From NCBI GenBank assembly GCA_947169105.1, contig CAMVOL010000004.1, positions 40,656-104,655 on the forward strand: 64,000 nt of DNA, written 5' to 3'. Below are positions 17,101 through 32,228 of the stretch, one piece after another (the stretch's first letter is position 1; each line of letters begins with the position of its first letter). The position numbers were made by a program, and so were the translations under genes. Origin of the DNA: an uncultured Bacteroidales bacterium. Its GTDB lineage: Bacteria > Bacteroidota > Bacteroidia > Bacteroidales > WCHB1-69. The notes beneath the pieces were generated by a model, which was given only the letters and a program-made list of their open reading frames with translations, was not told where the DNA came from and made no database searches.

Positions 17101-20100
17101 GTGCCGTCGCCATAGATGTTGCCGGCTTCCTCCATCGCCTTGTTACCCCAAATGATGCAGTTGGTGTATTCGTTGTCGGTGCTGTAATTGTAAATGCCGC
17201 CTCTGCAATAGTTGCTATTCGAACTGGTCGATTTGTTGTTGACAATATTACAGTTGACGAAACGGGAATGATTCCTTGCCGATATGCCTGCCGCACTATA
17301 ATAGGAGTTGTTTGTGGTCGTATTGTTGGCGATGTTCACATTTACGTACAAACCGCCGTTGGTATATAGGCCGCCACCGTTGTTGTTGGTGATGGAGGTG
17401 TTGAAAATCTGCACGGACGCGTTGTCGCTATAAACGCCGTAATTACTTGAGCCATTGTTCTCTATTACGCACTCTTTCACCGTCCCTGTCGTGATGTACA
17501 AGCCAGAACTCCTGTTCTGTCGCATAGTGCTGTTCGACAGGGTGCCGGTGGAATTAAAGTAAATGCCATAATTGTTGTTGTTCTGCGCCGTGCTGTTGCT
17601 TACATTAGTTCCGCCTTCGCAGCGTAAGCCGTAACCTTTGTTTCCGTCAAACATGCAGTGGTCAATACGGCAGTCTTTGGCCCACACGCCATATTGGTGG
17701 TTCCCGGAAAACGTGCAGTTGGACAAATCGGTGTTGGCCAACAGGTATGCGCCGGCATAGTCGCTGGTCGAGGTTACAAATCCGTTACGGAAGGTCAAGC
17801 CGTCGAAGATGCTACCATTGCCTTCGTCAAACGGGCAGCTTTTGTCAAGCACACGGTAGGCCGAGTCGCCGTCCACAACGGTAGCATGGGCGGAGAAGTC
17901 GCGCTGGGTAAGGTCGTAGGGATAAGGTTCATTGCCCTCGAAGCTGCCATAGACGGCCACTTTGGGCTGTGTGATGAGCGAATGTCCGGGCGTGTAGGTG
18001 CCGTTTGCTACCCAGACCATCGCGGGAGGTTCGCATCCCATGGCCACATCCATCGCATACTGGAGGTTGGCGGTGGCGTTACCCCAAGAGGAACCGTCCT
18101 GTGAACCCGCCCCCGTCGTCGTTACATATATTATATTGTTGTTCGCTTCGGGATGCAGAGGGAATGCCATATCATGTTCCGATTCGTAGGCACCGATGTC
18201 AGCACGCTCCTGCTGGATGCGGGTGTTGCCGCCAAGGTCGGTGGCGATGTCTTCCACAAAGATATTTCGGCCCAAATTGGCGCAGATGGAACCAGCTTGC
18301 AGCGTCCAGTCGCCGATGACGTTGTTCACATCAACCCCCGCTTCGGTGGTAGGGCTGGTGAATAAGGGATAGCCCACGCCTGTGCCGGAATTGTTCTTCT
18401 CTAATGTTATGGCGCCGCTGTAGCCGCCCTGCACGGCCGAATTTTCCATCGTGAAATAGTTGCTACCGTTCGTTGCTAACTGGTTGTCGTTGGCGCCCAC
18501 CTTGTTGCCCCACACGATGCTGTTCTGCAATGTGCAGGCGGATGAGGTGTAAAAGCCGCCGCCCTTGCTTACGGCCGAGTTGCGCACGATGTCGCAGGCG
18601 ATGAAACGGATGTTTCCGTTGCTGTTGGACACACCGCCGCCATTGCTGCCTGCCTCGTTATTTCCAATCAGGCATTGCATATAGGTTACCATTCCGTTAT
18701 AGCCGGTGCACACGCCTCCGCCGTTTGTGCGGGCGGTGTTGTTGCTGATTACACAGTTGGTCACTTGCGATACGGAGGAACTATAGTTGTTATGGTAGAT
18801 GCCGCCGCCTGTTGCCGCACTGTTGCGGGTGACAGACGTGTTGCGGATGGTGCTGTTCTGGTAGTCATAGATGCCGCCGCCGTATGTGTTCCAGTTGTCG
18901 CCATTGCTTTCATACTTCGACAGGTTGTTGCGGATGTCGCAGCCCTCGATAATGCCGTTCTTGTTGTAAACGCCCACGCCATATACCTTGTGGCCTGATC
19001 CGGTGCCCGAAAGGTCAATCCGGTTGGTGTGAATCGTGCAGTTGGACAGTGTGCCTCCGTCATTATATACGGCCACCCCGTTGCGTGTCACGTTGCTCTC
19101 AGAACCGGATATAGACGAAATGTTGTTTGTGATTACGCAGTTCTGGAGGGTGCAGTACTTGCGGATGTAGGCGCCGCCGCCCGACCCCACAGTATTCACG
19201 GAACCGCCCCTGATGCAGAAGCCGTCGAACAGGGTGGCGGTGGCTTCCGTGAAGTCAGCACTCTGGTATAGCACGCGACGGGAACCGGAACCGTATAGGA
19301 TGGTATTGTTCATATTGGCCTGTGTGCGGTTGCTGAGGTCGTAGTCCGCCGGCTCGTTGCCGACAAAGCCGCCGTATGCCCGCACGTTGGGCTTGATTTC
19401 ATAGCTGTTGTCCGCTGAGGTGTTGCCGGTGTAAGTTTCGGCCTTCACGTAGAGGTAGGGGGTCACATCGGTGAACGTGTTGGCGATGTCCATCGCCTCC
19501 TGCAGCTCCATGGCATTCTCCCATGAAGTGCCATCGTGCAGGCCTTCGCCGGTGGAGGTGACAAAAATGACCTTGCGCACAATCAGGTGCAGAACCACCA
19601 AGCTGTCGCATTCGTCATTCACATACCAACGATGCTGGTAGATACCCTGCTCACTGACAGGGGTGCCGTAGAAATCGTATGTGCCGCCTTCGTTGATGGT
19701 GACTTCCATGTCGCGCCGCATCGCACAATTGGTACTTTTGCAGAAACGCAGGTTGTTACGATAGCTGGTGGTAGTAATGTTGCGAATGTCGCTGGGATTC
19801 TCTATGTCAATGAATGAATTACTTCTCCCATAAATAGCCCTAGCAGTCCAATCAGTTTTGTAGGTGGTGGAAGAAAATGAATCGTTGTCGTTCCCACTGT
19901 TGTTCAGGAAAGCCACTACTATATTGGAAGTGCCGTCCCACAGGAACGGGTTACTAAATACAATGGTGACCCATTCTTCATCCAATGTCACTTCCCCGCT
20001 GAAAACTTCCTGCATACGGAAAGCAGGAATCCATGTGGTACTAGTCAGATTGTTTTGGAGCGTGTTCCCCATCCATACACTTACTGGGGACTTCGTTTGA

Positions 20101-23039
20101 GGCGTTCCGCTATAGTGGAAGGATAGAGACTGTATGTTGTCACCGTAAGCCAGACCTTGTTCAGCCAGTTCGGCGGCAGTGTATATCTGTTGGGTGTAAG
20201 TGTATTTCAGACAATAATAGCAATAACAATTATTGCAATCGGGGGCACTATAATCTCCGCCTGAATATCCCATTGGCAGAATGTGACCGTCATTGGTGCC
20301 TATAGTCTGTCCTTCGCCCATCTGTGCGCAGTCGAAACTGCCCACAGGAATGGTCGTCTTCACCCACTCGCTGGTAGCTCCGCCGCCGCAGTCGGCCTGT
20401 ACGTAAAAGTCGTAATAGCCGGAGGACAGATGCGTGGCAATCAGGGAGCTCATGCCGCTAATCGTTCGGAATGTGCCGGTGCCCCGCTCAAACCCCGCCG
20501 GGCCGTACTCGGCATTCCAAAGAGTCTCCTGATACCCCGGCAGCCACTCCAAACGCACGCTGTGCCGGTTCAAGTCGGTGTGGGTTAGATGGGTGGGGAC
20601 AGGACAATCCGTGGCAAGACATAACCTTATGCTGGCTCGCATGTTCGACAGGTACCCTTCATGTTCTGAGGTTAAGGGATAGGCAGAGGTGGCGTACAGC
20701 GTGCTGTTGCTTTCTCCGCCATTGGAAGCGAAGTTGATGTAGGTGTCGCAATAATCTCCGTTGTCGGCAACGGCGACCACCACATTGCTGTGCCCGTCCC
20801 AGACAAACGTGTTGTCAAAATCAAATTTCTTCCATTCATTGTTTTGGAAAATCTTGAAAACCTCCTCTTTTTCAGTATAGACATTTACAAGATTCTCTGG
20901 AGCGAACCAGTCCGTATTGCTGGAGAAGGCGGCTTTTGTAGTGTGGCCCATATAGAGGGCGATATTCCGCCGTTTGGATGTGGAACTGGTGTAGTTAGTG
21001 CGGTATTGGAAAGAGAGTGCCGTGATTTCATCTCCGGCCTGTAGGCCGAATGAGGACAGTTCCGCTGCCGTAAATAGTTGCTGTGACCAATGGTAGTTAT
21101 CACTATAACCTATATTAAAAGCGACTTCAGAGGAATAGGTGCTGGAGGTTGCCTGCACGAAGGGCTCTTCGAAACAGGCCATCACTTTCTCCGTCTTGAA
21201 TATTATAGGTCCAAGCGTTTGGATGCCGCTGCCGGAGCAGCTGTAGGAGAGGTAGGCATCGTACTCGGTTTCGGCAGTCAGTCCGCCGATGGTGACAGAA
21301 GTGGTAGTGGCTGGCACTATAGTGCCGGTGCCGGGTGTGAAGCCGTGTGGGCCGTACTCTACCCGCCAGTTGAAATTGAAACCGGTGTACTCTTCGGGAT
21401 GGAACACTTCCCACGAGAGATCTGCTGTGGCAAAGGTCTTTCCGATGCAGGCAAATCCGAACACAGGAGGCATACAGCTTACCTCTGTCACACGCAGCAA
21501 CAGCTCGTTTGAAACTGTTCCCGCTCCACTGACTACTAACGTGAGCGTTCCTGAGGTGGACATGACAGGTTCCTGCTGATTGCTGTTCTCTATGGTCATC
21601 AGCAAGGTGCCGTCGGTGCCTACTCCGTCATATACATAAATACGCCACCGGTCGGAATAATTGTTGGTGTATGCGACTTTTTCTAAAAGCAGTTGGGCAT
21701 CGGCAGTCTGTGGATACAGCACAAGCGTGTCGCCATTGTATTCGCCCCAGTTGCTTCCGTAGGTGTAATTTCCGTTGTAGCCAAGCTGGTGTGAAATGTC
21801 GAGACTGCCATGAACAGTCATCGAAGAGCGGCCTTCCGAATTAAATATATATTTTTGTATTCCAGATGTGTTCGGATGGCAGAATACGGCAATGTTGTTG
21901 CTGGGATAAAGGGAGGTGTCGGCACCCGCAGGAATCACATTTCCCACGGCATAGTAGCCGTTATACCAACCGCTCCATCCCCAGTTGAAATGGAAGTAGT
22001 CGTTGGCATCGTAACCATCGCACACAAAAGCATGGCCTCCTCCTTGCAAATCAAACGGTGTTCCATCGTAAAGAATGGGGTTATGAGCATCCAATTCATT
22101 CTTTAGCATGGCTTTCCATTCATCATCATTGTAATAGATGAGGTTGTTGTAGCTTCCAATAATGGTACCGAAACTCTTATAGTCTCTTAGGGCCATTTTG
22201 GCTTCGTATCCGAAATAGTCGATTAGGGCCGCACGGGCGTCAGTGGTGAATGCACTGCTTGCGTCCGGGCCGTAGCCCATATTTACGGCTACGCCGCAAT
22301 CGCGCATCAGGGTGGCCACGGCATTCACTTGTGCAGAGGTGCTGTTTGAGTTAAGTTCGTTCGGCATCAGGTCATAGTGGTATGTGTGGCTGCTGAAATT
22401 GACAGCCAGCGTGCCATAATCTTCGTGATAGTAAAGGTGCGAACCGAAGCCTTGTGCTGGCCACTGGTGATAGTTGATAATCTGTGCCATCGCTGTGGCC
22501 TCGCAGCCGGTGATGGCTTGGTCGTTGCCAGTACCAGGGCACAACGAATTGTACCACGGGCTTTGGTCCCATGTGGTGGTGAGCAGCGGAGCCACGGTGC
22601 GGGTGTTGCCGCTGCGGGTGGGTTCACGCCCCTCTACCAGTTTCGTCCATTCCGTGCTCACTTCGGCTGGGGAGGAAAGGTTGTGCTCTTTCACAAGGGC
22701 AATCTGGTCGGCATAGTTCTGCAACCATGCGGCGCAGTTGGAAGGGATGTTCTGCGGGTCGAAACTTCCGGTAGTGGAATAGCCCAGCACGGGCTTCACC
22801 GCATCGTCGGCGGAAACGATGACGAAGCCGCCGCCCACGTTATAGACATAGAACAGCGCGTCGCTGCGGCCGTTGCTCTTGGTGTAGGCCAGCGTGCATT
22901 CGGTGCTGCGGGTCACCGCCGGTATCTGCCTCATCATAAAGTGGCGGGCGACGGTTTGGGCCTGCTGCGGCTCCACAGGGTTGGCCATCATGGCAATGGC
23001 GCAAATCATCATGGCGAAAAAGGTCGTGATTCTCTTCAT
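14115..23039 (-). CDS. giant multidomain T9SS cargo protein with an N-terminal C10-family cysteine peptidase
   Basis: 2,974 aa with signal peptide and an Spi-like propeptide. C10 motifs NSLCPGTGNDQAITGCEATAMAQIINYHQWP and GGGHAFVCDGYD. FN3-like modules. Two parallel beta-helix blocks, each ending ...DIGAYE. Tandem Cys modules ending GCDSxVTLHLT. CTD LNLYPNPTNSTVTLQL...GIYLIKLVNDGKVMAVRKVVKE. Confidence 0.9.
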   Translation of the reverse strand: MKRITTFFAMMICAIAMMANPVEPQQAQTVARHFMMRQIPAVTRSTECTLAYTKSNGRSDALFYVYNVGGGFVIVSADDAVKPVLGYSTTGSFDPQNIPSNCAAWLQNYADQIALVKEHNLSSPAEVSTEWTKLVEGREPTRSGNTRTVAPLLTTTWDQSPWYNSLCPGTGNDQAITGCEATAMAQIINYHQWPAQGFGSHLYYHEDYGTLAVNFSSHTYHYDLMPNELNSNSTSAQVNAVATLMRDCGVAVNMGYGPDASSAFTTDARAALIDYFGYEAKMALRDYKSFGTIIGSYNNLIYYNDDEWKAMLKNELDAHNPILYDGTPFDLQGGGHAFVCDGYDANDYFHFNWGWSGWYNGYYAVGNVIPAGADTSLYPSNNIAVFCHPNTSGIQKYIFNSEGRSSMTVHGSLDISHQLGYNGNYTYGSNWGEYNGDTLVLYPQTADAQLLLEKVAYTNNYSDRWRIYVYDGVGTDGTLLMTIENSNQQEPVMSTSGTLTLVVSGAGTVSNELLLRVTEVSCMPPVFGFACIGKTFATADLSWEVFHPEEYTGFNFNWRVEYGPHGFTPGTGTIVPATTTSVTIGGLTAETEYDAYLSYSCSGSGIQTLGPIIFKTEKVMACFEEPFVQATSSTYSSEVAFNIGYSDNYHWSQQLFTAAELSSFGLQAGDEITALSFQYRTNYTSSTSKRRNIALYMGHTTKAAFSSNTDWFAPENLVNVYTEKEEVFKIFQNNEWKKFDFDNTFVWDGHSNVVVAVADNGDYCDTYINFASNGGESNSTLYATSAYPLTSEHEGYLSNMRASIRLCLATDCPVPTHLTHTDLNRHSVRLEWLPGYQETLWNAEYGPAGFERGTGTFRTISGMSSLIATHLSSGYYDFYVQADCGGGATSEWVKTTIPVGSFDCAQMGEGQTIGTNDGHILPMGYSGGDYSAPDCNNCYCYYCLKYTYTQQIYTAAELAEQGLAYGDNIQSLSFHYSGTPQTKSPVSVWMGNTLQNNLTSTTWIPAFRMQEVFSGEVTLDEEWVTIVFSNPFLWDGTSNIVVAFLNNSGNDNDSFSSTTYKTDWTARAIYGRSNSFIDIENPSDIRNITTTSYRNNLRFCKSTNCAMRRDMEVTINEGGTYDFYGTPVSEQGIYQHRWYVNDECDSLVVLHLIVRKVIFVTSTGEGLHDGTSWENAMELQEAMDIANTFTDVTPYLYVKAETYTGNTSADNSYEIKPNVRAYGGFVGNEPADYDLSNRTQANMNNTILYGSGSRRVLYQSADFTEATATLFDGFCIRGGSVNTVGSGGGAYIRKYCTLQNCVITNNISSISGSESNVTRNGVAVYNDGGTLSNCTIHTNRIDLSGTGSGHKVYGVGVYNKNGIIEGCDIRNNLSKYESNGDNWNTYGGGIYDYQNSTIRNTSVTRNSAATGGGIYHNNYSSSVSQVTNCVISNNTARTNGGGVCTGYNGMVTYMQCLIGNNEAGSNGGGVSNSNGNIRFIACDIVRNSAVSKGGGFYTSSACTLQNSIVWGNKVGANDNQLATNGSNYFTMENSAVQGGYSGAITLEKNNSGTGVGYPLFTSPTTEAGVDVNNVIGDWTLQAGSICANLGRNIFVEDIATDLGGNTRIQQERADIGAYESEHDMAFPLHPEANNNIIYVTTTGAGSQDGSSWGNATANLQYAMDVAMGCEPPAMVWVANGTYTPGHSLITQPKVAVYGSFEGNEPYPYDLTQRDFSAHATVVDGDSAYRVLDKSCPFDEGNGSIFDGLTFRNGFVTSTSDYAGAYLLANTDLSNCTFSGNHQYGVWAKDCRIDHCMFDGNKGYGLRCEGGTNVSNSTAQNNNNYGIYFNSTGTLSNSTMRQNRSSGLYITTGTVKECVIENNGSSNYGVYSDNASVQIFNTSITNNNGGGLYTNGGLYVNVNIANNTTTNNSYYSAAGISARNHSRFVNCNIVNNKSTSSNSNYCRGGIYNYSTDNEYTNCIIWGNKAMEEAGNIYGDGTFTYCAVEGGLDATGNITLESANNGGTVGVNYVRFVNPTAEAGISTQEDVDYHLASGSACINAGNSSNTSLNLPTYDLGGSLRIKQNRIDIGAYEFGDVTIQTIDSSICLGSSFSYNNGEYFVYPEAPGLFKDTIIYYEGGTDYIVYLNLQVNPKYNIRIDTAICQGESYFFDGQYYTTPVTRTAHLETVAGCDSTVTLILSINPIVYGEFHAEACDSFRWYDSTYYETGDYEQVLQAATGCDSIVTLHLTVHHSVTTVDSMMLCRSALPYYYQGMIIDEDAPEHDTIPIQLSTVHDCDSTVFMRFTIMDVITTEFSIDTCDLYVWNGVPYTTSGNKEQTFTASTGCDSIVTLHLTIRQSNIFQFDDEACYLYRWNESTYEESGDYQQVFTNAAGCDSTVTLHLTIYQAVFSDIFATTCQNELPYHYINGQIDTIFGTETPHFSTFDFHFSTSHGCDSTVTLHLTVNPSYSIPLEAIICQNELPYHYINGQIDTIFGTETPELSVHNFHLSTMDECDSLITLTLTVIPVSAPQLVVDGQVTACESGSATLSVEGSYATYTWSTGATTPTLEVSAPGFYWVSLTDTNGCSSITEVTQLGGSELIPEIPAICMVGVENGHNLVVWEEIENTNVQNYRIYRENDQANVYELLATVPASQGNSYEDITADPTVRAWRYKVTAMDVCQGETPMSELHKTVHLTINRGIGNSWNLIWTHYEGFEFSSYKLYRGTANNNLEEITTIPSTLTSYTDYDNVDGALFYQIEVVMSSSCLRRSETYTGARSNIVYNGEAVYIDTNVTACVEYEWYGTNYHQSGTYLHDYTSPLGYDVHASLHLTIVQPPAITITGNTSITAGQSTTLTATFNSQCSYLWSTGATTNSITVSPTETTTYYVTVTYGPCELSTGKTVTVTTGVAEWGDGILNLYPNPTNSTVTLQLTPETCTLNPEIQIFDIYGQRLQIMPIRDERTQIDLSHYATGIYLIKLVNDGKVMAVRKVVKE
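15500..16900 (-). repeat. in-frame tandem array of ~180-195-nt (~60-aa) Cys modules inside the giant gene (bounds approximate)
   Basis: 15601-15668 and 15781-15848 are 67/68 identical at an exact 180-nt offset. The motif ggagcgtgacngtgctgtcgca recurs at about 15717, 15897 and 16040. Confidence 0.85.
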
Positions 23040-24300: not shown

Positions 24301-24402
24301 TTATGTTTAGTTAAAAGTTAATAGTTAAAAGTTAAAAGTTGAAGGGAAGTGGTGGTTTTGGGTTAAGGAGTTAAGAAGTTAAGGAGTTAAGATGTGAATT
24401 GG

Positions 24403-24427
24403 GGCAAACTGCATCTCGCAGTTTGAA
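24403..24427. repeat. 25-bp hairpin repeat, right copy of the inverted pair bracketing trxB
   Basis: ggcaaactgcatctcgcagtttgaa matches the reverse complement of 23294-23318 at 25/25 positions. Confidence 0.9.
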
Positions 24428-24518
24428 TGTCCCGATAATAGGTGATATGTGGCAGGTGATAGGTAGAAGGTTATTTTGTTCAAAAAGGCAGTCTATAATT
24501 TTGGTTGATATTGAGCTG

Positions 24519-24526
24519 CAAAGGTA
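24519..24526 (-). promoter_or_regulatory. -7 box (TAccTTTG), candidate trxB promoter, outside the inverted-repeat bracket
   Basis: The + strand caaaggta reads TACCTTTG on the - strand, about 219 nt upstream of ATG 24300. Confidence 0.4.
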
Positions 24527-24707
24527 AGATTTTTATTTCAAATACCTCTTTTGCTATCGTATAATTTTGCAAATTTCCGTAAAATGTTGAAACATAGACG
24601 TATGGGATTTTCGGTCCTAATTAACAACGAAATCTGACAAGCCCAAGCGATACCGAGGGTTGTCTCTGGAACAAAATCCTATCAGTGGGGAAGGAAAGAT
24701 GGATGTT

Positions 24708-25145
24708 TTATCGGACAATATCCCAGAAAAATAGGGATTCTTCTTCACCGCTTAACAGACCCGTATCAACGATTGTGCGCCTTACGGTGGCAAGGTCGTT
24801 TTCGTTCAGTCGTCCAATGACTTTGCACGTTCCGTTGGCGATACCGCTGGCAATGGCCGACATCTCCATAATGAGGGTGTGTGAGCAGTTGGCGAAAGAG
24901 TCGTGCGCCAAGAAAGTGTTGTCGCTCTTTTTCAATGGTACCTGTGCATTCAGCAGGATGGGCTTGTTGTACAGCGAAGGGTGTATTCTGGAATTGATGA
25001 AGATGCTGCATACCGTGAGCCGGTTGCGTGTGATGCCGGTCACAATGAAGAATTTCGGATGGTAAATGCCCTCAAAGTTCTGCAAGAAGACATCGCCTGT
25101 ATGGATGGCTGCCGTAATAATCTCCTGTGGAAAATCAACACTCAT
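24708..25145 (-). CDS. hypothetical 145-aa protein, candidate toxin partner of the Panacea-domain protein
   Basis: ATG start, 6 nt downstream of the preceding ORF, in the AT-rich islet. No family recognised. The layout (GDVFLQNF..HPKFFIVTG .. NAQVPLKKS .. HDSFANCSHTLIM .. VIGRLNENDL) is loosely reminiscent of MazF/PemK-type SH3-barrel toxins. Confidence 0.6.
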   Translation of the reverse strand: MSVDFPQEIITAAIHTGDVFLQNFEGIYHPKFFIVTGITRNRLTVCSIFINSRIHPSLYNKPILLNAQVPLKKSDNTFLAHDSFANCSHTLIMEMSAIASGIANGTCKVIGRLNENDLATVRRTIVDTGLLSGEEESLFFWDIVR

Positions 25146-25151
25146 TCCGGT

Positions 25152-25691
25152 TCATTTAACGAGCGTTTCCAGCTCCATCTCCTCCTGCACGTACTGTATG
25201 TAACTGTCGGATTCACCTGTTTCCACAAGCATGTTTTTCACATCAATGGGACGGTTGAGCGTGGTGTTGCGCCAAGCGTAGTCATGCGATTTTTCACGTA
25301 TTTCATCCCACGAAAGTTCGCCATATTTTTGGAGGGTTTCGTCAATGATCTGAATATCCATTTTCGACAGGCAACGCATATCAGGCTCCTTCTTGGCAGT
25401 AACCAGATCCCAGTTTTCCACTCCAATCCATGCGGTGAGCTCTGACTGGTTGTTGAAGAATCCGTCCCCACGCACCGATTTGAATATGTCATAGATGTTG
25501 GAGGGCACGGGACCGTCGTTCATTGCGATATAGGTGTCGCCCGTAATCATCATTCCAGCTTGTGAAAGCATATCACGGTCAGAGAAATACAAGATTTTGA
25601 AAACCTTGTGGAAGTCAGCTCTTTTCAGGTGCTTCACAATGTAAAGCACCGCATTCATTGCTTTGTTAAAATTAAAAACTCCTTTCGTCAT
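25152..25691 (-). CDS. Panacea (DUF4065 / SocA-GepA-like) domain protein, antitoxin candidate
   Basis: The track ORF extends to 25769. ATG 25691 (MTKGVFNF...) or ATG 25658 (MNAVLYIVKHL...) fits better given the -7 box at 25700. FHKVFKILYFSDRDMLSQAGMMITGDTYIAMNDGPVPSNIYD resembles DUF4065. Confidence 0.7.
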   Translation of the reverse strand: MTKGVFNFNKAMNAVLYIVKHLKRADFHKVFKILYFSDRDMLSQAGMMITGDTYIAMNDGPVPSNIYDIFKSVRGDGFFNNQSELTAWIGVENWDLVTAKKEPDMRCLSKMDIQIIDETLQKYGELSWDEIREKSHDYAWRNTTLNRPIDVKNMLVETGESDSYIQYVQEEMELETLVK

Positions 25692-25699
25692 TGCGGCGG

Positions 25700-25707
25700 C
25701 AAAAGTA
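25700..25707 (-). promoter_or_regulatory. -7 box (TActTTTG) for the Panacea / 145-aa pair
   Basis: The + strand caaaagta reads TACTTTTG on the - strand. It lies 9 nt from ATG 25691 and about 42 nt from ATG 25658. Confidence 0.55.
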
Positions 25708-25859
25708 CAACAAATTTCCAATATTGCGGAATTTATGCTGAAATAATGCTGAATTTTTGTGGAAATCAAAATGTAATAATTTCAAAATCAGGTCGTTGTT
25801 GTACACATAGCAATCGTTATTTGCAATGCCAAAAAAATGAATATCACAAGCATTCGTAA

Positions 25860-25892
25860 GTGAGCCAGCCGTAAAATCCCGGTCCGATCAAC
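25860..25892 (+). repeat. cassette-junction repeat R1
   Basis: GTGAGCCAGCCGTAAAATCCCGGTCCGATCAAC aligns with R2-R5 (GTGA..C...C/GT[GA]AAA....G....AT.AAC). Confidence 0.7.
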
Positions 25893-25954
25893 CACATGAG
25901 GTGGCGTACGCGGATGTGGTGACATTGGCTATCGTGGATGGGAACGGTAAAATT

Positions 25955-25982
25955 GTAGAGACGCGATTAATCGCGTCTCTAC
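25955..25982. repeat. 28-bp perfect palindrome
   Basis: gtagagacgcgattaatcgcgtctctac equals its own reverse complement. Confidence 0.9.
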
Positions 25983-26084
25983 AGCAGGTCACATACAATT
26001 CTGGGGGGTCCTTGTCCGCCGCCAGCACCAACGTGATGATAGCCTGCCAGAAGGGGGAAACGCCATCCATCAAAATATTATTTG

Positions 26085-26092
26085 TATATTTG
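26085..26092 (+). promoter_or_regulatory. -7 box (TAtaTTTG) heading the + strand cassette array
   Basis: TATATTTG lies about 22 nt upstream of ATG 26114. Confidence 0.55.
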
Positions 26093-26113
26093 CACCGGCA
26101 AAATCAAACAACA

Positions 26114-26182
26114 ATGTTGGGTGCAATAATAACTTTGGTTCTCTTATGGGCTGCCTATAAATGGTTGAAAGAGAATATTTGA
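26114..26182 (+). CDS. 22-aa hydrophobic mini-protein (MLGAII family, copy 1)
   Basis: ATG..TGA reads MLGAIITLVLLWAAYKWLKENI*. It lies directly after the -7 box and has a paralog at 26268. It is below the ORF-track size cut-off. Confidence 0.4.
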   Translation: MLGAIITLVLLWAAYKWLKENI

Positions 26183-26214
26183 GTGAACCATCTATGAAAT
26201 TCCAGTTATAACAA
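26183..26214 (+). repeat. cassette-junction repeat R2
   Basis: GTGAACCATCTATGAAATTCCAGTTATAACAA starts right after the TGA of mini-protein 1. Confidence 0.6.
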
Positions 26215-26267
26215 GTTCTATAGTTTTTTGCCATTGTTTAATATTGTAGCCGCATAAATCAGGTGCC

Positions 26268-26366
26268 ATGTTAGGAGCAATTATATCCATATTATTTGTT
26301 ATATGGTTTGTCTGGAAAGGAATCAAAGATCCTACACCGCCCACGTGGAGACGGAATCTTCATTGA
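26268..26366 (+). CDS. 32-aa hydrophobic mini-protein (MLGAII family, copy 2)
   Basis: Reads MLGAIISILFVIWFVWKGIKDPTPPTWRRNLH*. It shares the MLGAII start and a single predicted TM helix with copy 1. Confidence 0.4.
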   Translation: MLGAIISILFVIWFVWKGIKDPTPPTWRRNLH

Positions 26367-26374
26367 GGCCTATA

Positions 26375-26408
26375 GTGAACCAGCCGTGAAAATTTGGTCT
26401 GAATAAAC
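26375..26408 (+). repeat. cassette-junction repeat R3
   Basis: GTGAACCAGCCGTGAAAATTTGGTCTGAATAAAC ends 13 nt before ATG 26422. Confidence 0.7.
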
Positions 26409-26421
26409 TAGAAAAGGATTT

Positions 26422-26631
26422 ATGGAAACAATATTCGATCATAATGTAACGAAAAGGGAAATTGAGGAGTTTGGTCTTGTTGGCTCAAAGGATGTTGATA
26501 GTATAACGGCCAACATTAACCTCGCTTATTTATTTTGGCATCGTGGTAATAAAACTAAAGCCAGATTATATGCAGACAGACTACCTATTGAATATAGGAA
26601 TGACTTTTATAGGACTATATCACACTCTTGA
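26422..26631 (+). CDS. hypothetical 69-aa protein (array cassette 3)
   Basis: ATG start flanked by junction repeats R3 and R4. No family recognised. Confidence 0.45.
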   Translation: METIFDHNVTKREIEEFGLVGSKDVDSITANINLAYLFWHRGNKTKARLYADRLPIEYRNDFYRTISHS

Positions 26632-26654
26632 ATATATAGCGAAATCATTTTTTT

Positions 26655-26689
26655 GTGAGACAGTCGTGAAATATTGGGTATAATCAAAC
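26655..26689 (+). repeat. cassette-junction repeat R4
   Basis: GTGAGACAGTCGTGAAATATTGGGTATAATCAAAC ends 12 nt before ATG 26702. Confidence 0.7.
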
Positions 26690-26701
26690 TTATTAATCCT
26701 C

Positions 26702-27214
26702 ATGAAAAAATTCTTTTTACTAGTATTGTTTTTTATTCCTATTGCAATTGTAGGACAAGTCTTACGAGAGAGAACTACTGGCGTTAAGGATTTTGGTACA
26801 GAACGATGGGAATTGATGGAATATGAGTTACGACAATATACAATTGTGGATTCTTCGATTGAATTGCAATTAAGAGAAATATTGGGTATTAATCAAACGT
26901 CTGAAATTCAAAGCATGTGGAAACATTTGATGTTCGTGGAGTACATTAATGACACAATAAAATTAAGAATAGAATATCAGGATGCGCCGTACAAGCTGCC
27001 TGGATTAGTGGGTTTCTTTCGTATTGATGATTGGGACATATTGTTTTACAACAAGCTACCAACTTTTCTGAAAGCCACGAAAAAGTCCAAGACTTTTGCT
27101 TATGAAAGACATCTTTACAAGATAGGTAAAGATGATTGGGTGGAATTTCCCGGCGACAATTGCAGTCATACTTGGAATTTGATTTATTTTAACAACACGT
27201 TTTTAATTGAGTGA
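26702..27214 (+). CDS. hypothetical secreted 170-aa protein (array cassette 4)
   Basis: N-terminal signal peptide MKKFFLLVLFFIPIAIVGQ. No family recognised. Its size and export signal resemble orphan immunity-type proteins (inference). Confidence 0.65.
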   Translation: MKKFFLLVLFFIPIAIVGQVLRERTTGVKDFGTERWELMEYELRQYTIVDSSIELQLREILGINQTSEIQSMWKHLMFVEYINDTIKLRIEYQDAPYKLPGLVGFFRIDDWDILFYNKLPTFLKATKKSKTFAYERHLYKIGKDDWVEFPGDNCSHTWNLIYFNNTFLIE

Positions 27215-27244
27215 CTCTGACGTGAAATTGCAGCTATAATCAAC
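27211..27244 (+). repeat. cassette-junction repeat R5
   Basis: GTGACTCTGACGTGAAATTGCAGCTATAATCAAC contains the TGA stop of cassette 4 and ends 3 nt before ATG 27248. Confidence 0.7.
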
Positions 27245-27247
27245 ATC

Positions 27248-28039
27248 ATGATATATATCATATCCTTACTATTTGTTGCCGGCATCAGCCTTGTGATTGT
27301 TAGATGGTGGTACAATTCACCCCGTCAGAAAGGCAAACAAGGGGAACAAAGGGTGCGTGATATTCTTTCTCATCTACCAGAAGATTACCATGTCTTGCAG
27401 GACATCATATTGAAAACAGAAAAAGGGACAACACAAATTGATCATGTTGTCATCAGTCGGTATGGGATATTCACTATAGAGACAAAGAACTATCGAGGTG
27501 AAATTTATGGTGACGACACCCGTAAAGAATGGACACAGCTTATCGTTACAGATGTAACGTATGCAAAGAAATGGTGGAAAACATATACCTATGTGACGAA
27601 GAACCATTTTTATAACCCAGTCAAACAATCGTTAGGGCACGCTTATAGGATCAAAGAACTCCTTTCTGCATACCCCAACCTTAAAATTGTACCCATTGTT
27701 GTGTTTGCAGGTGACGCCTTACTGAACAACGTCAGGAGCAATCACCATGTCATCTATGAAAACCGTTTATTGGAGTTGATTTATTCATACGGGACCTGTT
27801 GCCTGACAGATTACGATGTTCAAACAGTGCTTTCCCTATTCAATGAGAACAATGTCAGAGAGACGGTGAGCGACAGACAACATGTCGAGAACCTTAGAAA
27901 TGCAGCAAGAGAGGTCAATGCCACCATCCATTCAGGCATTTGTCCGAAATGTGGCGGCCGTTTGATTGAACGGCACGGCAAATATGGTACATTTTATGGA
28001 TGTTCCAACTATCCTCAATGCAGATTCATTGTAAAATAG
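27248..28039 (+). CDS. NERD (nuclease-related) domain protein with an N-terminal TM helix and a C-terminal topoisomerase-type C4 zinc ribbon
   Basis: 263 aa. GEQRVRDILSHLPEDYHVLQDIIL...QIDHVVISRYGIFTIETKNY (NERD). CPKCGGRLIERHGKYGTFYGCSNYPQCRF (zinc ribbon). Confidence 0.8.
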   Translation: MIYIISLLFVAGISLVIVRWWYNSPRQKGKQGEQRVRDILSHLPEDYHVLQDIILKTEKGTTQIDHVVISRYGIFTIETKNYRGEIYGDDTRKEWTQLIVTDVTYAKKWWKTYTYVTKNHFYNPVKQSLGHAYRIKELLSAYPNLKIVPIVVFAGDALLNNVRSNHHVIYENRLLELIYSYGTCCLTDYDVQTVLSLFNENNVRETVSDRQHVENLRNAAREVNATIHSGICPKCGGRLIERHGKYGTFYGCSNYPQCRFIVK

Positions 28040-28560
28040 CAGCGGAAGTTATCTATCCGTCCGGTTCTTCCGCGGCATCACCTGCGGTGTTCTTCCGTAC
28101 CTGCCGCCCGTGCCGCGGGCTGACCCACGAGGCTTTCCCGCACAACCCCACGTTACGGCGTTCACTTCGTTCCGCCTCACATGGGGCTACAAAGCTTGCA
28201 CCCCTACGGGGTGCCGCACGAAACCCTTCCCTTCCTAAAATACGGCGCGATTCCGAAGTCGCACGCCGCCTTGCGATTTTTGCCGTTAAGAAATTGAGAC
28301 GTTTCGAGCGTGAAGAAACGCGAACTGTTTGAAGCAACACGGAATGGAATGCAGTGTTGCAAGTTTTCGCGTTTTAGCGAGAAACGGCCAATTTTAGGGA
28401 AAAATCGTGCAGCGGCAAAGCGCATTTCTTTTGGTTCGTTTTCTTTTTGCAATCGAAAAGAAAATGAACAAATATAACCGAAGGTTAAATACACGATTTA
28501 GAGACTGACAAAACCAAAAATATTGTCACCAAATGTTTTTGGCAACAGTACCTTAACTCC
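28040..28560. other. non-coding tract with a GC-rich, hairpin-dense left part and an AT-richer right part; function unknown
   Basis: Contains the perfect hairpin cacccc-tac-ggggtg (28199-28213) and gcccg-tgccg-cgggc. It shares words with 57484-57631 (ctgac[cg]cac, cacccct[ag]cggggt, atggggct). Track ORFs here have no start context or family. Confidence 0.5.
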
Positions 28561-28588
28561 TTAACTTTCAATTTTCAGTTCTCAACTT

Positions 28589-30376
28589 TCAGTTCAAGAA
28601 CGCGATCACATCGCCCTTCCGCACTTTTTCCCCTTGGCTTGCCACCACTTGCAGCAGCTTGCCGTCGTACAGGGCTTTCACCTCGTCCTGGCCGTAGTAG
28701 GCCTCCACATAGCATACGGTGTCGCCTTCTTTGTAGGACGTGCCTTGCGGCGGGTTCATGCCCTGTCCGGTGACGGGAAGTTCCCACAGCACGATGCCGT
28801 CGGAGGGGGCAATGACGGGTTTTGCGTCGGGATGCTGGGCCGTTACAGCGGCAATCAGCTCCTCGCGTACCACTTCGGGCAGCTTGATCTCCTTGACGAT
28901 GACTTTGATGTTGGATTGCTGCTTCTTGGCTTCGAGTTCGCGCTCGAAATTCTTCTTGGCCGCACCGCTCTTATAGTCGATGTACTGCGTCGGGTGCATG
29001 GCGTACTCGAAGAGTTCCTCCTCGTCTTCGCCGACGTCCCAGCCCTGCTCTTCCATCAGCTTGCGGTACTTCGGCAGCTCGTCCGGATAATGGTCCTGCG
29101 GGTTGGTGGTGGAGAATTCGTATCCTTTTTCTTTGGCCAATTCCACGATTTCGGGCGCCAGTGTGCCGGGGAGTGTGCCGGCTTTGCCGAGGATCATGTC
29201 CCACTGCTTCTGGTCCATGGAACTGAAACGCTCCTTGCCTTGCGCCATCTGCAGGATGTTCATCAGGGCGATGTTCTTGACGTACTGGCTGAACGGGGTG
29301 ACCAGAGGCGGGTTGCCGACTTTGGGCCACACGTAGGCCACCTCCTCAAACAGCTTCACCAAAAGCTCGTCTTCGGAAAGTTCTTTTTGACCGCTGGCTT
29401 TCAGCGACATATTGATGGCTTTGTGCACGCCTTTGAGGTCGGCCATCATCGAGCCCATCATACCGCCGGGCAGGCCGCAGCCCACGAGCAGGGAGGTGGA
29501 GATGCGGTTCTTCGGGTCGATCCAGTAGCCGAGGAAGTCGTCCATAAACTCTTGGGTGAGACGGCGCACCTCCATATAGGCGTTCATGTTGATTTCGGGG
29601 ACGTCGAAGCCCGCATCTTTCAGCATGGCCTGGATGGTGATGACATCGGGATGCACCATGCCCCAGGAGAGGGGTTCGACAGCCACGTCGATGATGTCGG
29701 CGCCGGCTTTGGCCACCTCTAATGTGGAGGCGACGGAGAAGCCCGGGCCGGTGTGGCCGTGGTATTGCACGAGGATGTGCGGGTATTTTTCCTTGATGGC
29801 CTTGACCAGTTTGCCGAGGGTGGCGGGGCGGCCCACACCGGCCATGTCCTTCAGCCCGATTTCGTCACAGCCGAACTCCACGACTTTATCCACCACGCCC
29901 ATATAGTACTCCACGGTGTGGATGTCGGAGTGGGTGATGCTGAGGGCGACTTGCGAGATCATGCCGGCCTCTTTGGCGAACTTGACGGAGTTTTCGAGGT
30001 TGCGGGGGTCGTTGAGGCCGCAGAAGGAGCGGGCGACATCGACACCTTGGGCTTTCTTCACCTTGAACATCAGTCGGCGCACGTCGGCGGGCACGGGGTC
30101 CATACGGAGGGCATTGAGGGCGCGCTCCAGCATCTGGCACTGGATGCCGGCTTCCCGCAGCGGCTTCGTCCATGCGCGGACGGCCTTGTTCGGGTTCTCG
30201 CCGTAAAGAAGGTTCACTTGTTCAAAAGCGCCGCCGTTGGTCTCCACGCGGGCGAAACAGCCGCAATCCACGATGGCGGGTGCGACACGCACCAGCTGGT
30301 CCACGCGGGGCTGGTACTTTCCGGAAGATTGCCACATGTCACGATAAACGAGACAGAATCTGATTTGTTTGCTCAT
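28589..30376 (-). CDS. pyruvate/oxaloacetate carboxyltransferase (OadA / transcarboxylase-5S-like) with a C-terminal biotinyl/lipoyl-like domain lacking the canonical MKM lysine
   Basis: 595 aa. LKDMAGV, VQYHGHTGPG and GADIIDVAVEPLS carboxyltransferase motifs. The C-terminus EGDTVCYVEAYYGQDEVKALYDGKL occupies the position where EAMKM is expected. Confidence 0.8.
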   Translation of the reverse strand: MSKQIRFCLVYRDMWQSSGKYQPRVDQLVRVAPAIVDCGCFARVETNGGAFEQVNLLYGENPNKAVRAWTKPLREAGIQCQMLERALNALRMDPVPADVRRLMFKVKKAQGVDVARSFCGLNDPRNLENSVKFAKEAGMISQVALSITHSDIHTVEYYMGVVDKVVEFGCDEIGLKDMAGVGRPATLGKLVKAIKEKYPHILVQYHGHTGPGFSVASTLEVAKAGADIIDVAVEPLSWGMVHPDVITIQAMLKDAGFDVPEINMNAYMEVRRLTQEFMDDFLGYWIDPKNRISTSLLVGCGLPGGMMGSMMADLKGVHKAINMSLKASGQKELSEDELLVKLFEEVAYVWPKVGNPPLVTPFSQYVKNIALMNILQMAQGKERFSSMDQKQWDMILGKAGTLPGTLAPEIVELAKEKGYEFSTTNPQDHYPDELPKYRKLMEEQGWDVGEDEEELFEYAMHPTQYIDYKSGAAKKNFERELEAKKQQSNIKVIVKEIKLPEVVREELIAAVTAQHPDAKPVIAPSDGIVLWELPVTGQGMNPPQGTSYKEGDTVCYVEAYYGQDEVKALYDGKLLQVVASQGEKVRKGDVIAFLN

Positions 30377-30466
30377 ATAGTTTGGTCTGTTTTTGTTTTA
30401 TTCTTCTATTATAAACAAGGAAAAAGCCCAATTGTTCAAGGCTTTTCCTGTTTTTGAAAAAACGCG

Positions 30467-30474
30467 CAAAGGTA
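30467..30474 (-). promoter_or_regulatory. -7 box (TAccTTTG) for the carboxyltransferase gene
   Basis: The + strand caaaggta lies about 91 nt upstream of ATG 30376. Confidence 0.5.
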
Positions 30475-30533
30475 CGATTTTTTTGTGGAAGAAAGAATTT
30501 GTTTGAAAAATTTGTTGTTTGCAAGAAAAGCAA

Positions 30534-30541
30534 TATCTTTG
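30534..30541 (+). promoter_or_regulatory. -7 box (TAtcTTTG) for mntA-hepT
   Basis: TATCTTTG lies about 21 nt upstream of ATG 30562. Confidence 0.6.
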
Positions 30542-30561
30542 CAGCCCCAAACGGAGTGTTT

Positions 30562-30861
30562 ATGAGTACAGAATCAATAACGGCTAAGATAGCTGAATAC
30601 TTCAAGACGCAGCCTGTGGTGAAAGCATGGCTGTTCGGGTCGTTTGCCCGTGGCGAGGAAACGCCCGATAGTGATATTGACATATTAGTACAGTATGATG
30701 AAAATGCCCGCATTTCGTTGTTGACCATTTCGCACATGATGGGAGAATTGGAACAAAGCACTGGAAGACGTGTTGATTTAATTGAAGATGGTTGTCTGAT
30801 GCCTTTTGCAGCGGAATCAGCCAACCGCGACAAACGATTGATATATGAGAGAAGAAATTAA
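30562..30861 (+). CDS. mntA: MNT-type nucleotidyltransferase antitoxin (type VII TA, MntA)
   Basis: The track ORF starts at 30454; ATG 30562 follows the -7 box. LFGSFARGEETPDSDIDILV is the GSx..DxD nucleotidyltransferase motif. Confidence 0.85.
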   Translation: MSTESITAKIAEYFKTQPVVKAWLFGSFARGEETPDSDIDILVQYDENARISLLTISHMMGELEQSTGRRVDLIEDGCLMPFAAESANRDKRLIYERRN

Positions 30862-31201
30862 GGACATAGAACGACTCCAGCATATTCTTGAAGCTATAAA
30901 CGTGCTTATTGACTACAAGGAACGACATACATTGGAAGAAGCTCAGTCTGATCCTGTGGTGTATTTCGGACTGGTGAAGCACGTTGAAATTATAGGTGAG
31001 GCTGTATATATGCTGACATTGGAGTATAAAGAAAAGCACAACGAAGTAAATTGGGGTGATATTGAGCGTATGAGGCACGTGTTGGTGCATGGATATTATA
31101 AAATCAGGCCAATACAGCTCTGGGAGACTATTGCTGTGGATATCCCTCAACTGAAACCTTTTATTATGAAATTGATAGAAGAAAAATTGTCTGAACAATG
31201 A
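30845..31201 (+). CDS. hepT: HEPN (DUF86) toxin HepT
   Basis: 118 aa, overlapping mntA by 17 nt. The RX4HXY motif is present in ERMRHVLVHGYY. Confidence 0.85.
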   Translation: MREEIKDIERLQHILEAINVLIDYKERHTLEEAQSDPVVYFGLVKHVEIIGEAVYMLTLEYKEKHNEVNWGDIERMRHVLVHGYYKIRPIQLWETIAVDIPQLKPFIMKLIEEKLSEQ

Positions 31202-31644
31202 ACATTGCACTCCGTTCCTTTCTCCGCCACGTGGCCCTGATTGCCGCCTTTTTTTTCCTGAATCTCTATTTGTTTTCGCAGACAACCGTTTATCAGAAAG
31301 ACAAGTGGGGCGCAAAACTCTATTATGTCGATGAGACCAACACCATGCGCATCAAGGACAAGTGGGGCGACAAACTCTACTATTTCGACGGGAAGACCAT
31401 CCGTCTGAAGGACAAGTGGGGCCAGGCGTTGGCCTATATGGACGGCAATACGGTGCGACTGAAGGACCAGTGGGGCGATAAACTCTACTACTTCGACGGA
31501 AACACCATCCGCCAAAAGGATCAATGGGGCGAAAAACTCTATTATCTGGATGGCAATGTTTTGAAAATCAAGGATAAATGGGGTGCGCCGATGTTCTATT
31601 TCGATGGGATTCCCGAAAGGTGGATGATTGTTTGCGTAATTTGA
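31198..31644 (+). CDS. secreted tandem-repeat protein (six 18-aa KDKWGxKLYYxDGxT[IV]R repeats)
   Basis: Its ATG overlaps the hepT stop (ATGA). Signal peptide ALIAAFFFLNLYLFSQ. The 54-nt coding repeats span about 31282-31605. They may be related to short beta-hairpin 'beta-flower'-type repeats (unverified). Confidence 0.7.
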   Translation: MNIALRSFLRHVALIAAFFFLNLYLFSQTTVYQKDKWGAKLYYVDETNTMRIKDKWGDKLYYFDGKTIRLKDKWGQALAYMDGNTVRLKDQWGDKLYYFDGNTIRQKDQWGEKLYYLDGNVLKIKDKWGAPMFYFDGIPERWMIVCVI

Positions 31645-31649
31645 AATTT

Positions 31650-31664
31650 TGGCACGGTATTTGT
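31650..31664 (+). promoter_or_regulatory. candidate sigma-54 (-24/-12) promoter upstream of the ECF sigma gene
   Basis: TGGCACGgtatTTGT compared with consensus TGGCAC-N5-TTGC gives one mismatch. It lies 37 nt upstream of ATG 31701. Confidence 0.35.
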
Positions 31665-31700
31665 TGTATGGTGGCGTGTAAAATTGGAAATTGCTACCCT

Positions 31701-32228
31701 ATGGAAAATACCGATATGATGAACAGCGTCCTCTCTCTTGATGACCGTCTGCGCCAATATGCTTTCTCTCTCACTCATAATCAGGAGGATGCGGAGGATT
31801 TAGTACAGGATACCTATTTGAAAGTGCTTCAGAATACCGATCGTTTCGCCGAAGCAACCAATCTGAAGGCGTGGGTCTATACGATTATGCGGAATACGTT
31901 CATCAACGGCTACCGCCGCAAGCAACGGAGCAAGGTCGTTACCGATGAAAGCGATGATAATGTGTCATTCACCAGCACGACCACGGTGTCAAGTGATGCC
32001 GCCGACCTCCCGCTGTATGTTTCGGAAATCACTACGGCCATCTCCTCTATGAAAGACAATCAAAGGGATGCATTCGAAATGTATGTGGACGGTTTCAAGT
32101 ACCACGAGATTGCCGACAAGCTCCAAATTTCCATCGGTACGGTGAAGAGCCGCATCTTCTTCGCCCGCCAGAAACTGATGTCCAACCTTACGGGTTATTC
32201 GGTGGCGCAGCTTCCGCTGACCGCGTAG
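31701..32228 (+). CDS. ECF-type RNA polymerase sigma-70 family factor
   Basis: The track ORF starts at 31578; ATG 31701 gives 175 aa. Region 2 is DAEDLVQDTYLKVL...LKAWVYTIMRNTFIN. Region 4 is YHEIADKLQISIGTVKSRIFFARQKL. Confidence 0.85.
   Translation: MENTDMMNSVLSLDDRLRQYAFSLTHNQEDAEDLVQDTYLKVLQNTDRFAEATNLKAWVYTIMRNTFINGYRRKQRSKVVTDESDDNVSFTSTTTVSSDAADLPLYVSEITTAISSMKDNQRDAFEMYVDGFKYHEIADKLQISIGTVKSRIFFARQKLMSNLTGYSVAQLPLTA

Follow-up and report, generated by a model that had tools for sequence, protein, structure and literature searches.

A low-GC array of small genes joined at a 34-bp repeat in an uncultured Bacteroidales bacterium: a candidate cassette array with an orphan immunity gene

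How was the 2.2-kb island of small genes at positions 25860-28039 of a 64,000-nt stretch of DNA from an uncultured Bacteroidales bacterium (assembly GCA_947169105.1, contig CAMVOL010000004.1; the whole stretch is hereafter the window) put together? The island has a GC content of 38.9%, against 59-64% in the flanking genes, and its five open reading frames (ORFs) are co-oriented on the + strand. A preliminary description of this DNA reported a repeat at every junction between these genes and likened the island to the integron-like and recombinase-associated immunity-gene arrays of gut Bacteroidales. Based on the analyses described below, we give a probability of roughly 0.5 to the reading that the island is a cassette array of the integron or rAID (recombinase-associated acquired interbacterial defense) kind, with a new junction element that would double as an intercistronic stop-and-leader signal. 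On this reading, it would be functionally analogous to the rAID-1 and integron arrays, with a different junction element and no linked recombinase. As judged by homology, the repeat is where modules of separate origin meet: a captured immunity gene, and a NERD module that is common to lineages with different cargo.

All five repeats lie on the + strand with the coordinates and sequences originally given for them: R1 at 25860-25892 (GTGAGCCAGCCGTAAAATCCCGGTCCGATCAAC), R2 at 26183-26214, R3 at 26375-26408, R4 at 26655-26689, and R5 at 27211-27244. Their nhmmer E-values were 1.2e-7, 2.4e-6, 6.5e-8, 2.8e-7, and 4.2e-9, respectively. R2 is the most divergent copy and R3 is the nearest to the consensus, (A)GTGAACCAGCCGTGAAATTTCGGTCATAATCAAC, which is about 34 bp long and which the copies match at 79% on average. 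In the alignment of the five window copies, the GTGA, C, T-AAA, G, and A positions are invariant. The copies are short (32-35 nt) and R2 was recovered weakly when it was omitted from the profile (E 0.066), as might be expected if the similarity among the five segments had arisen by chance in AT-rich sequence. That explanation was refuted by shuffling and leave-one-out tests, and we assign it a negligible probability. Thus, the loose pattern GTGANNNNNNNRTRAAA matched six times in the 64 kb, five of these within the array, as compared to 0.70 +/- 0.72 matches expected, and none of 100 shuffles reached six. In the leave-one-out searches, every omitted copy was the top non-training match in the window on both strands, with E-values of 4e-4 to 1.3e-3 for all but R2; the top match outside the array had E-values of 0.39-6.5. 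Profiles built from six or eight copies matched only R1-R5 within the window. The repeat was also found independently in two related lineages (L149 and L224), at a homologous position and before another gene. The repeat family is statistically real and, within the window, confined to the array. Together, the window and the related lineages contain eight full copies and two 3'-half copies.

The source of one module was traced to a toxin locus. The gene at 26702-27214 (+) encodes a 170-aa protein with a signal peptide, for which few homologues were found. In locus L103, the gene for a 173-aa protein of 90% identity begins 5 nt behind an orphaned C-terminal piece of an Rhs toxin that contains Toxin-JAB1 (E 8.9e-16); this fragment stands behind a full Rhs/Toxin-JAB1 gene and that gene's own immunity gene. 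In locus L217, the homologue follows a 3061-aa SpvB/RHS protein ending in Toxin-JAB1, again with a gap of 5 nt. Overall, the 170-aa protein is 82-90% identical to the proteins encoded right behind these two Toxin-JAB1 Rhs C-termini. Because its homologues directly follow Toxin-JAB1 Rhs toxins, the 170-aa gene is, by homology, an orphan copy of a Toxin-JAB1 immunity gene. At the DNA level, the window and L103 are 93% identical, and this similarity is confined to 26689-27204. On the left, it sets in at R4's final base, at a distance of 13 nt from the ATG, and takes in the toxin's last codons and TAA stop; on the right, it breaks off 7 nt before R5. The stop codon of the window ORF is the TGA inside the GTGA of R5, and the native C-terminus has been replaced. 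An AlphaFold2 single-sequence model of the protein was unusable (pLDDT 41).

The terminal module of the array provides a second set of junctions. The gene at 27248-28039 (+), for which R5 is the leader, encodes a 263-aa protein comprising an N-terminal transmembrane (TM) segment, a NERD domain, and a topoisomerase I-type C4 zinc ribbon (Pfam NERD and Zn_ribbon_Top1). Homologues of 93% identity occur in two further arrangements, and the gene is the last one in all three array types. In L149-L153, which have another genomic neighborhood, the order is a 170-aa TM protein gene, a 153-aa gene, a 75-aa TM gene, the repeat, and NERD. In L224-L225, a gene for a 150-aa secreted protein comes first; a full repeat (nhmmer E 6e-6) separates it from a 112-aa gene, which is followed by the repeat and NERD. 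L149 has a possible 3'-half copy before the 75-aa TM gene that was seen by eye and is not significant (nhmmer E 3.7). Homology of the window to L149 covers only 27207-28118 (91.6% identity) and that to L224 only 27210-28077 (92.4%), while L149 and L224 are 95.8% identical beginning at the A of AGTGA. Indeed, all three pairwise comparisons break 1-4 nt from the 5' edge of the NERD-proximal repeat, and the genes upstream of the NERD unit are unrelated among the three lineages. The gain or loss of cassettes at repeat boundaries, proposed in the preliminary description as something to look for, is matched by cassette differences between related lineages with breakpoints at the repeat (window, L149, and L224). 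NERD homologues of 71-81% identity (L141, L154, and L145-L148) lie behind an FtsX permease gene or in a defense island on a mobilizable element, and the repeat was not found upstream of them. Since these more distant homologues do not carry it, the repeat belongs to the arrays and not to the NERD gene.

The placement of the repeat relative to the reading frames would fit a role in expression. Its 5' edge, (A)GTGA, would close the preceding reading frame, often after TAA, TAG, or TGA, and stop codons occur there as TTGAGTGA, TAAGTGA, and TAGTGA. Its A/T-rich 3' end, ATCAAC, would be placed 3-13 nt before the next start codon. An ATCAAC-NNN-ATG ending is present in four copies, this being the spacing in R1 (ATCAAC-CAC-ATG), R5, and the L149 and L224 copies. 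In line with the first description, R2 begins immediately after the previous stop codon, R3 and R4 begin 8 and 23 nt after it, and R5 supplies the TGA; likewise, R3, R4, and R5 end 13, 12, and 3 nt before the next ATG. Because of the stop-bearing 5' edge and the proximity of the 3' end to a start codon, the repeat would act as an intercistronic stop-and-leader. The array + strand contains a single good Bacteroidetes-type -7 box (TAnnTTTG), as had been stated. This box, TATATTTG at 26085-26092, lies after R1 and not ahead of all five repeats, leaving R1 upstream of the operon promoter. Presumed to serve the operon from the first mini-peptide to NERD, it would drive a polycistronic transcript with the repeat as the stop-and-leader between cistrons. 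Fused to the box is a 3'-half copy of the repeat, CCGGCAAAATCAAACAACA at 26095-26113 (+), predicted to form the short 5' leader of mini-peptide 1; it was aligned by eye to CCGGTCCGATCAACCAC of R1 and is below significance in nhmmer.

Of the earlier suggestion that the repeat acts at the RNA level, a structured RNA element is not supported. Alignment folds of either five or eight copies gave 0 consensus pairs, and folds of single copies had z-scores of -1.9 to +1.5. The sole dyad in the repeat, judged by eye, is a central GAAATTTC palindrome of 8-10 bp. Two candidates were dropped: a CWG...CWG stem, which was supported just by three orthologous NERD copies, and the core-site dyad of a tyrosine recombinase, which came down to the central palindrome. 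We take the repeat to be a linear junction element that serves at least as an intercistronic stop-and-leader. If the island is a cassette array, recombination would take place at this junction through an enzyme whose gene lies elsewhere, and the host would gain orphan immunity or defense functions from the array.

A number of results weigh against the island being a cassette array. Having neither a hairpin nor a dyad beyond the central GAAATTTC, the repeat is unlike the attC and rAID-1 repeats. The 64 kb contain no recombinase: in agreement with the preliminary description, tblastn using the rAID-1 recombinase of L155 returned a best E-value of 0.008, and this match is spurious, lying in an RNase R gene (RNB/S1 domains). 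Position-specific constraint in the repeat is not significant (10 invariant columns versus 8.1 expected, P = 0.21). Evidence of an immunity function exists for just one of the five cargo units. Moreover, the junctions of that unit look illegitimate: the toxin locus has no repeat, the gene is truncated at its 3' end, and the junction pattern does not show site-specific capture. Fifteen conspecific contigs are 99.93-100% identical to window positions 24308-28377 and have the same five repeats; the array is invariant within the strain or species. Finally, exact and degenerate pattern scans of genomes, JGI metagenomes, and IMG/VR gave no further arrays. The genome scan covered 185,579 species-representative genomes using AGTGANCCAGCCGTGAAA, which describes the R3-like form only; the metagenome (JGI) and viral (IMG/VR) contigs were scanned using GTGANNCWGNCGTRAAAWN{9,10}ATMAA, and the viral contigs also using two other patterns. 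The matches obtained were single and unrelated, for example in a phage coding family and a eukaryote-like contig, and no locus had two profile matches. A distant blastn search of a plasmid database yielded no match either. The repeat family is rare, or the scan patterns were too strict. Given these strict patterns and a metagenome collection that is possibly poor in ruminant samples, the absence of matches is weak evidence of rarity. Of the outcomes named at the outset as counting against an array, absence of the repeat from the scanned collections and invariance among the 15 conspecific contigs were both found, but two related lineages carry the repeat together with different cassettes.

As for where the array occurs, proteins identical to those of the window are present in a metagenome-assembled genome labeled "Bacteroidales bacterium" (GCA_017459005.1) and in many metagenome assemblies, whose sample-set names suggest a ruminant or livestock gut origin; the contigs occur in the sets XIEF21, TONG22, and STEW19. 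Five conspecific assemblies (L001, L006, L011, L012, and L013) match the window to 28377 and then run on into unrelated AT-rich sequence, tattataggttaaaaacaagcc..., which reaches the contig end in less than 92 nt. In some strains, a multicopy element thus seems to have inserted immediately to the right of the array, at 28377/28378.

Among the alternatives, a rAID-1 array left degenerate or orphaned after loss of the XerD-like recombinase would account for the low GC content (38.9%), the short co-oriented genes, the intergenic repeats, and the orphan immunity gene, in line with the second and third of the published criteria. These arrays, found in gut Bacteroidales (Ross et al. 2019, bioRxiv 10.1101/471110; PMC12247911), are defined by a XerD-like recombinase of >44% identity to BF9343_RS08045, at least two co-directional genes with a GC content of ≤41%, and an intergenic motif (bioRxiv 10.1101/471110). 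Their repeats are termed 'reminiscent of integrons' in the rAID texts (bioRxiv 10.1101/471110), which give no motif sequence in their text. The sequence of BF9343_Orf5 was rebuilt from the supplementary alignment and used as a query, and four rAID-1 loci were fetched (L155-L158, including a complete B. fragilis genome). Each has a Phage_integrase gene encoding 372-376 aa and 11-15 immunity genes, with cargo families SUKH, Imm9, Imm10, Imm17, Imm19, and Imm44. The intergenic repeat of these loci is about 50 nt long and reads TAACAAGCGGAT...ATCCGCCGAACATTA, also written TAACAAGCGGATnAATC...GATTATCCGCCGAACATTA. In L155, L156, and L158 it corresponds to an attC-like hairpin bounded by TAACA...CATTA, five of whose six predicted pairs have two-sided (compensatory) changes in at least one sequence. 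The window repeats have 0 predicted pairs, and reciprocal profile searches were empty: 25 rAID-1 repeats against the window gave a best E-value of 1.6, and the window repeats against the four loci gave 3.9. With five co-oriented ORFs at 38.9% GC, the window agrees with rAID-1 in orientation and composition; it has neither the recombinase, for which tblastn gave just the spurious RNase R match, nor the repeat. Contradicted on two defining features, descent from a rAID-1 array is very improbable. Of the original proposal of an integron-like or rAID-type array, what stands is that the array is cassette-like and includes an orphan immunity gene; membership in rAID-1, even as a degenerate copy, does not stand, the repeat being unrelated. 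As to the kind of cargo, the 170-aa gene fits the orphan-immunity pattern, no function is known for the 69-aa protein or the mini-peptides, and NERD is not an immunity family.

The repeat could instead be purely an expression element (a 5' leader, an intercistronic signal, or a regulator or alternative sigma factor site) spread along with its genes by duplication and ordinary rearrangement and playing no part in recombination, which we consider possible but on balance unlikely. Every copy of the repeat is on the coding strand and shortly precedes a start codon, with ATCAAC-NNN-ATG fixed in four copies, and its 3' half occurs alone right behind the -7 box at 26085 and possibly in L149 (the non-significant match above). 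One repeat copy of L224 has a TATTTTTG box some 100 nt upstream and would therefore sit in a 5' untranslated region. R4 and R5 score 10/12 as sigma-70-like GTGAGA/GTGACT-N18-TATAAT promoters; primary-sigma promoters in Bacteroidetes use TAnnTTTG, and the sigma-70 -35/TATAAT arrangement is not of that type. An internal GTGA-N7-GTGA direct repeat of 11-bp spacing resembles, by eye, activator sites, and a gene for an extracytoplasmic function (ECF) sigma factor is located 3.5 kb away, downstream of the array (31578-32228, +), although the repeat profile had no match upstream of that gene. Yet the full copies lack TAnnTTTG, no conserved RNA structure was found, and no copy occurs elsewhere in the 64 kb, contrary to what is expected of a regulon. 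An expression element also leaves unexplained both the three homology breakpoints 1-4 nt from the 5' edge of the repeat and the exact fit of the captured immunity gene between two copies. More doubtful still is that the repeats are non-functional vestiges of successive insertion or displacement, for example by homology-facilitated illegitimate recombination on the NERD leader or by tandem duplication followed by ORF replacement; this process would be comparable to the sequential displacement by which immunity-gene arrays are reported to form in Vibrio cholerae (PMC5361080). Such vestiges would be consistent with the lack of excess position-specific conservation, with copies about 79% identical to the consensus, with the paralogous mini-peptides 1 and 2, which indicate tandem duplication, and with the failure of tblastn to find a recombinase in the window. 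The immunity gene is truncated, and 8 nt of the toxin's 3' end persist with it as a stub, as is typical of illegitimate joins. On the other hand, eight copies in three lineages have stayed recognizable ahead of unrelated genes, with no similarity among the intervening cargo, both edges of the repeat are precisely re-used as junctions, and the stop codon and start-codon spacing are maintained. We regard as improbable an undescribed capture platform in which the NERD/Zn-ribbon nuclease-like protein, or another enzyme that is not a tyrosine recombinase, acts on the 34-bp repeat; such an enzyme would replace the integrase of integrons and rAID-1 and gather immunity and defense ORFs upstream of itself.

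The remaining cargo is heterogeneous, as claimed from the outset: beside the 170-aa secreted protein, now seen to be encoded by an orphan immunity gene, and the NERD/Zn-ribbon protein, there are two mini-peptides and a 69-aa protein. R1 does not head the first mini-peptide as had been proposed. It is followed 3 nt later, at the canonical spacing, by an 8-codon ORF (MRWRTRMW*, 25896-25922, +), probably the remnant of a decayed cassette, and then by an ORF-less stretch. The GC-richer R1-R2 interval contains, ahead of the promoter box, a perfect 30-bp palindrome with no spacer (TGTAGAGACGCGATT/AATCGCGTCTCTACA, 25954-25983); none of the fetched loci has a homologue of this ORF-less interval. Mini-peptide 1 (26114-26182, +; 22 aa, MLGAIITLVLLWAAYKWLKENI) is hydrophobic and is preceded by the promoter box fused to the half repeat. 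Mini-peptide 2 (26268-26366, +) has 32 aa, MLGAIISILFVIWFVWKG.... The two have a common MLGAII start and first nucleotides that are 15/20 identical, and by this similarity they are paralogues. Mini-peptide 2 matches the NERD N-terminus at 18/21 nt, which is about the level of chance, and this likeness was dropped. The 69-aa protein (26422-26631, +) belongs to a family of proteins of about 70-77 aa with one TPR-like unit; at E ≤ 1e-3, 61 representative clusters were recovered, most of them full-length at 70-77 aa, and the protein had no match in Pfam, NCBIfam, or PADLOC.

Behind the NERD gene, a GC-rich (64%) structured tail (28040-28220, +) moves with the gene. BLAST homology extends to 28118 in L149 and 28077 in L224, and weaker similarity with matching stems reaches about 28215 in the alignment. 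The motif CCrGTTCTTCCrCGGCA is retained even downstream of NERD genes of 80% identity that lie in other surroundings. The tail is contained in a 550-nt non-coding stretch (28040-28590) with a predicted folding energy of -177.9 kcal/mol (z = -4.97 versus shuffles), possibly a cluster of terminators or an RNA of unknown kind; Rfam searches of 24500-29000 returned a sub-threshold rliA match only. Copies of a different hairpin, ATTCCGTTCCC-N10-GGGAACGGAAT, contain the two ends of the 2.2-kb L224 contig (1-30 and 2145-2174), so that either the three-gene array is bracketed by the hairpin or the contig is circular. The same hairpin occurs in L149 at 2503-2532 and is absent from the window.

The neighbors of the array are housekeeping and toxin-antitoxin genes: TrxB, a SocA/Panacea pair, and a carboxylase subunit. 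The SocA/Panacea-domain antitoxin-like gene (24708-25769, -) has a likely start at 25691, behind a TACTTTTG box at 25707. Its partner encodes 145 aa with no family match, and the two, divergent from the array and of lower GC content than the flanks, are a probable toxin-antitoxin pair. Further to the right, at 30454-31201 (+), overlapping nucleotidyltransferase (Polbeta/NTP_transf_2) and HepT-like RNase genes form an MNT/HEPN toxin-antitoxin pair. To the left, 14115-23039 (-) encodes a 2974-aa protein with Inhibitor_I69, Peptidase_C10, and Beta_helix domains and a type IX secretion (T9SS) Por_Secre_tail sorting domain, as called on the identical gene in L001. Within the rAID-1 loci, an IS91-family transposase gene (Y2_Tnp and Zn_Tnp_IS91) lies inside the arrays of L155 (7087-8316), L157 (7738-8967), and L158 (11058-12287); in two of these loci it directly follows the recombinase gene, and in the other it comes behind the first cassette. 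A by-eye likeness of the window repeat to the region following this gene (CTGCCGTGAAC...AGTGAAATCCC) was dropped, as the profile search was empty.

Gut Bacteroidales stockpile orphan immunity genes in the integron-like rAID-1 arrays. If the cassette-array reading is true, the window represents a second array type, and the "immunity gene library" architecture would have had more than one origin. Should the repeat turn out to serve expression only, what is left is an operon with an unusual leader. In either case, the array is a small, tractable instance, with sharply mapped junctions, of how ORFs join such repeats.

The array may be compared with four known systems. In integrons, every ORF has on its 3' side an attC site, an imperfect inverted repeat of 57-141 bp (R''-L''...L'-R') that forms a hairpin as a single strand; where such sites are clustered without an integrase, the array is called a CALIN. 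The window array resembles these in being a promoter-proximal series of promoterless cassettes with a repeated junction, including an ORF-less unit with a promoter and, as in a CALIN, without an adjacent integrase. It differs in that its element is 34 bp long, is unstructured, and moves with the downstream ORF as a leader. No attC-type hairpin was found in the window repeats (0 consensus pairs from five or eight copies), and no tyrosine integrase was found in the window using the rAID-1 recombinase as the only query, an IntI profile not having been used.

Polymorphic toxin systems of the Rhs/Toxin-JAB1 type (PF15659) resemble the window in the 170-aa protein, which is 82-90% identical to the proteins encoded right behind the toxin C-termini in L103 and L217. 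The window gene differs from these modules in having no toxin, a replaced C-terminus, and a position between repeats. In the type VI secretion (T6SS) clusters of V. cholerae, immunity-gene arrays are reported to arise by sequential effector displacement (PMC5361080). The two systems are alike in having orphan immunity genes, in tandem in V. cholerae, and in the orphan keeping a stub of the toxin's 3' end; here, the toxin's last codons and TAA precede the 170-aa gene as in a displaced-effector stub. In the V. cholerae arrays, a live effector of the T6SS cluster comes first and the junctions share no repeat (PMC5361080), whereas the window array has a common repeat and is without nearby toxin or secretion genes, no toxin or T6SS domains having been found among its neighbors.

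The rAID-1 arrays share with the window low-GC, co-oriented short genes in Bacteroidales, a conserved intergenic repeat in gene orientation, cargo with orphan immunity genes (for the window, the 170-aa gene) that have diverged from their toxin-linked cognates, and a cassette content that varies by lineage. In contrast to rAID-1, the window has no XerD-like recombinase at the 5' end of the array or in the 64 kb. Its repeat is about 34 rather than 50 nt long, is unrelated in sequence, and is without a hairpin or compensatory pairs. The array is tiny (five modules), has so far been seen in ruminant-gut metagenomic contigs only, and is flanked by housekeeping genes and a SocA toxin-antitoxin pair rather than by the backbone of an integrative and conjugative element. 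Its conserved element is the 3'-terminal NERD/Zn-ribbon gene with its structured tail in place of a 5' recombinase. As a second type, the array would thus be distinguished by an unrelated, unstructured junction, the lack of a linked recombinase, another anchor gene, and a captured Rhs-toxin immunity gene, and it would add Bacteroidales of the ruminant gut to those of the human gut in which the phenomenon is known.

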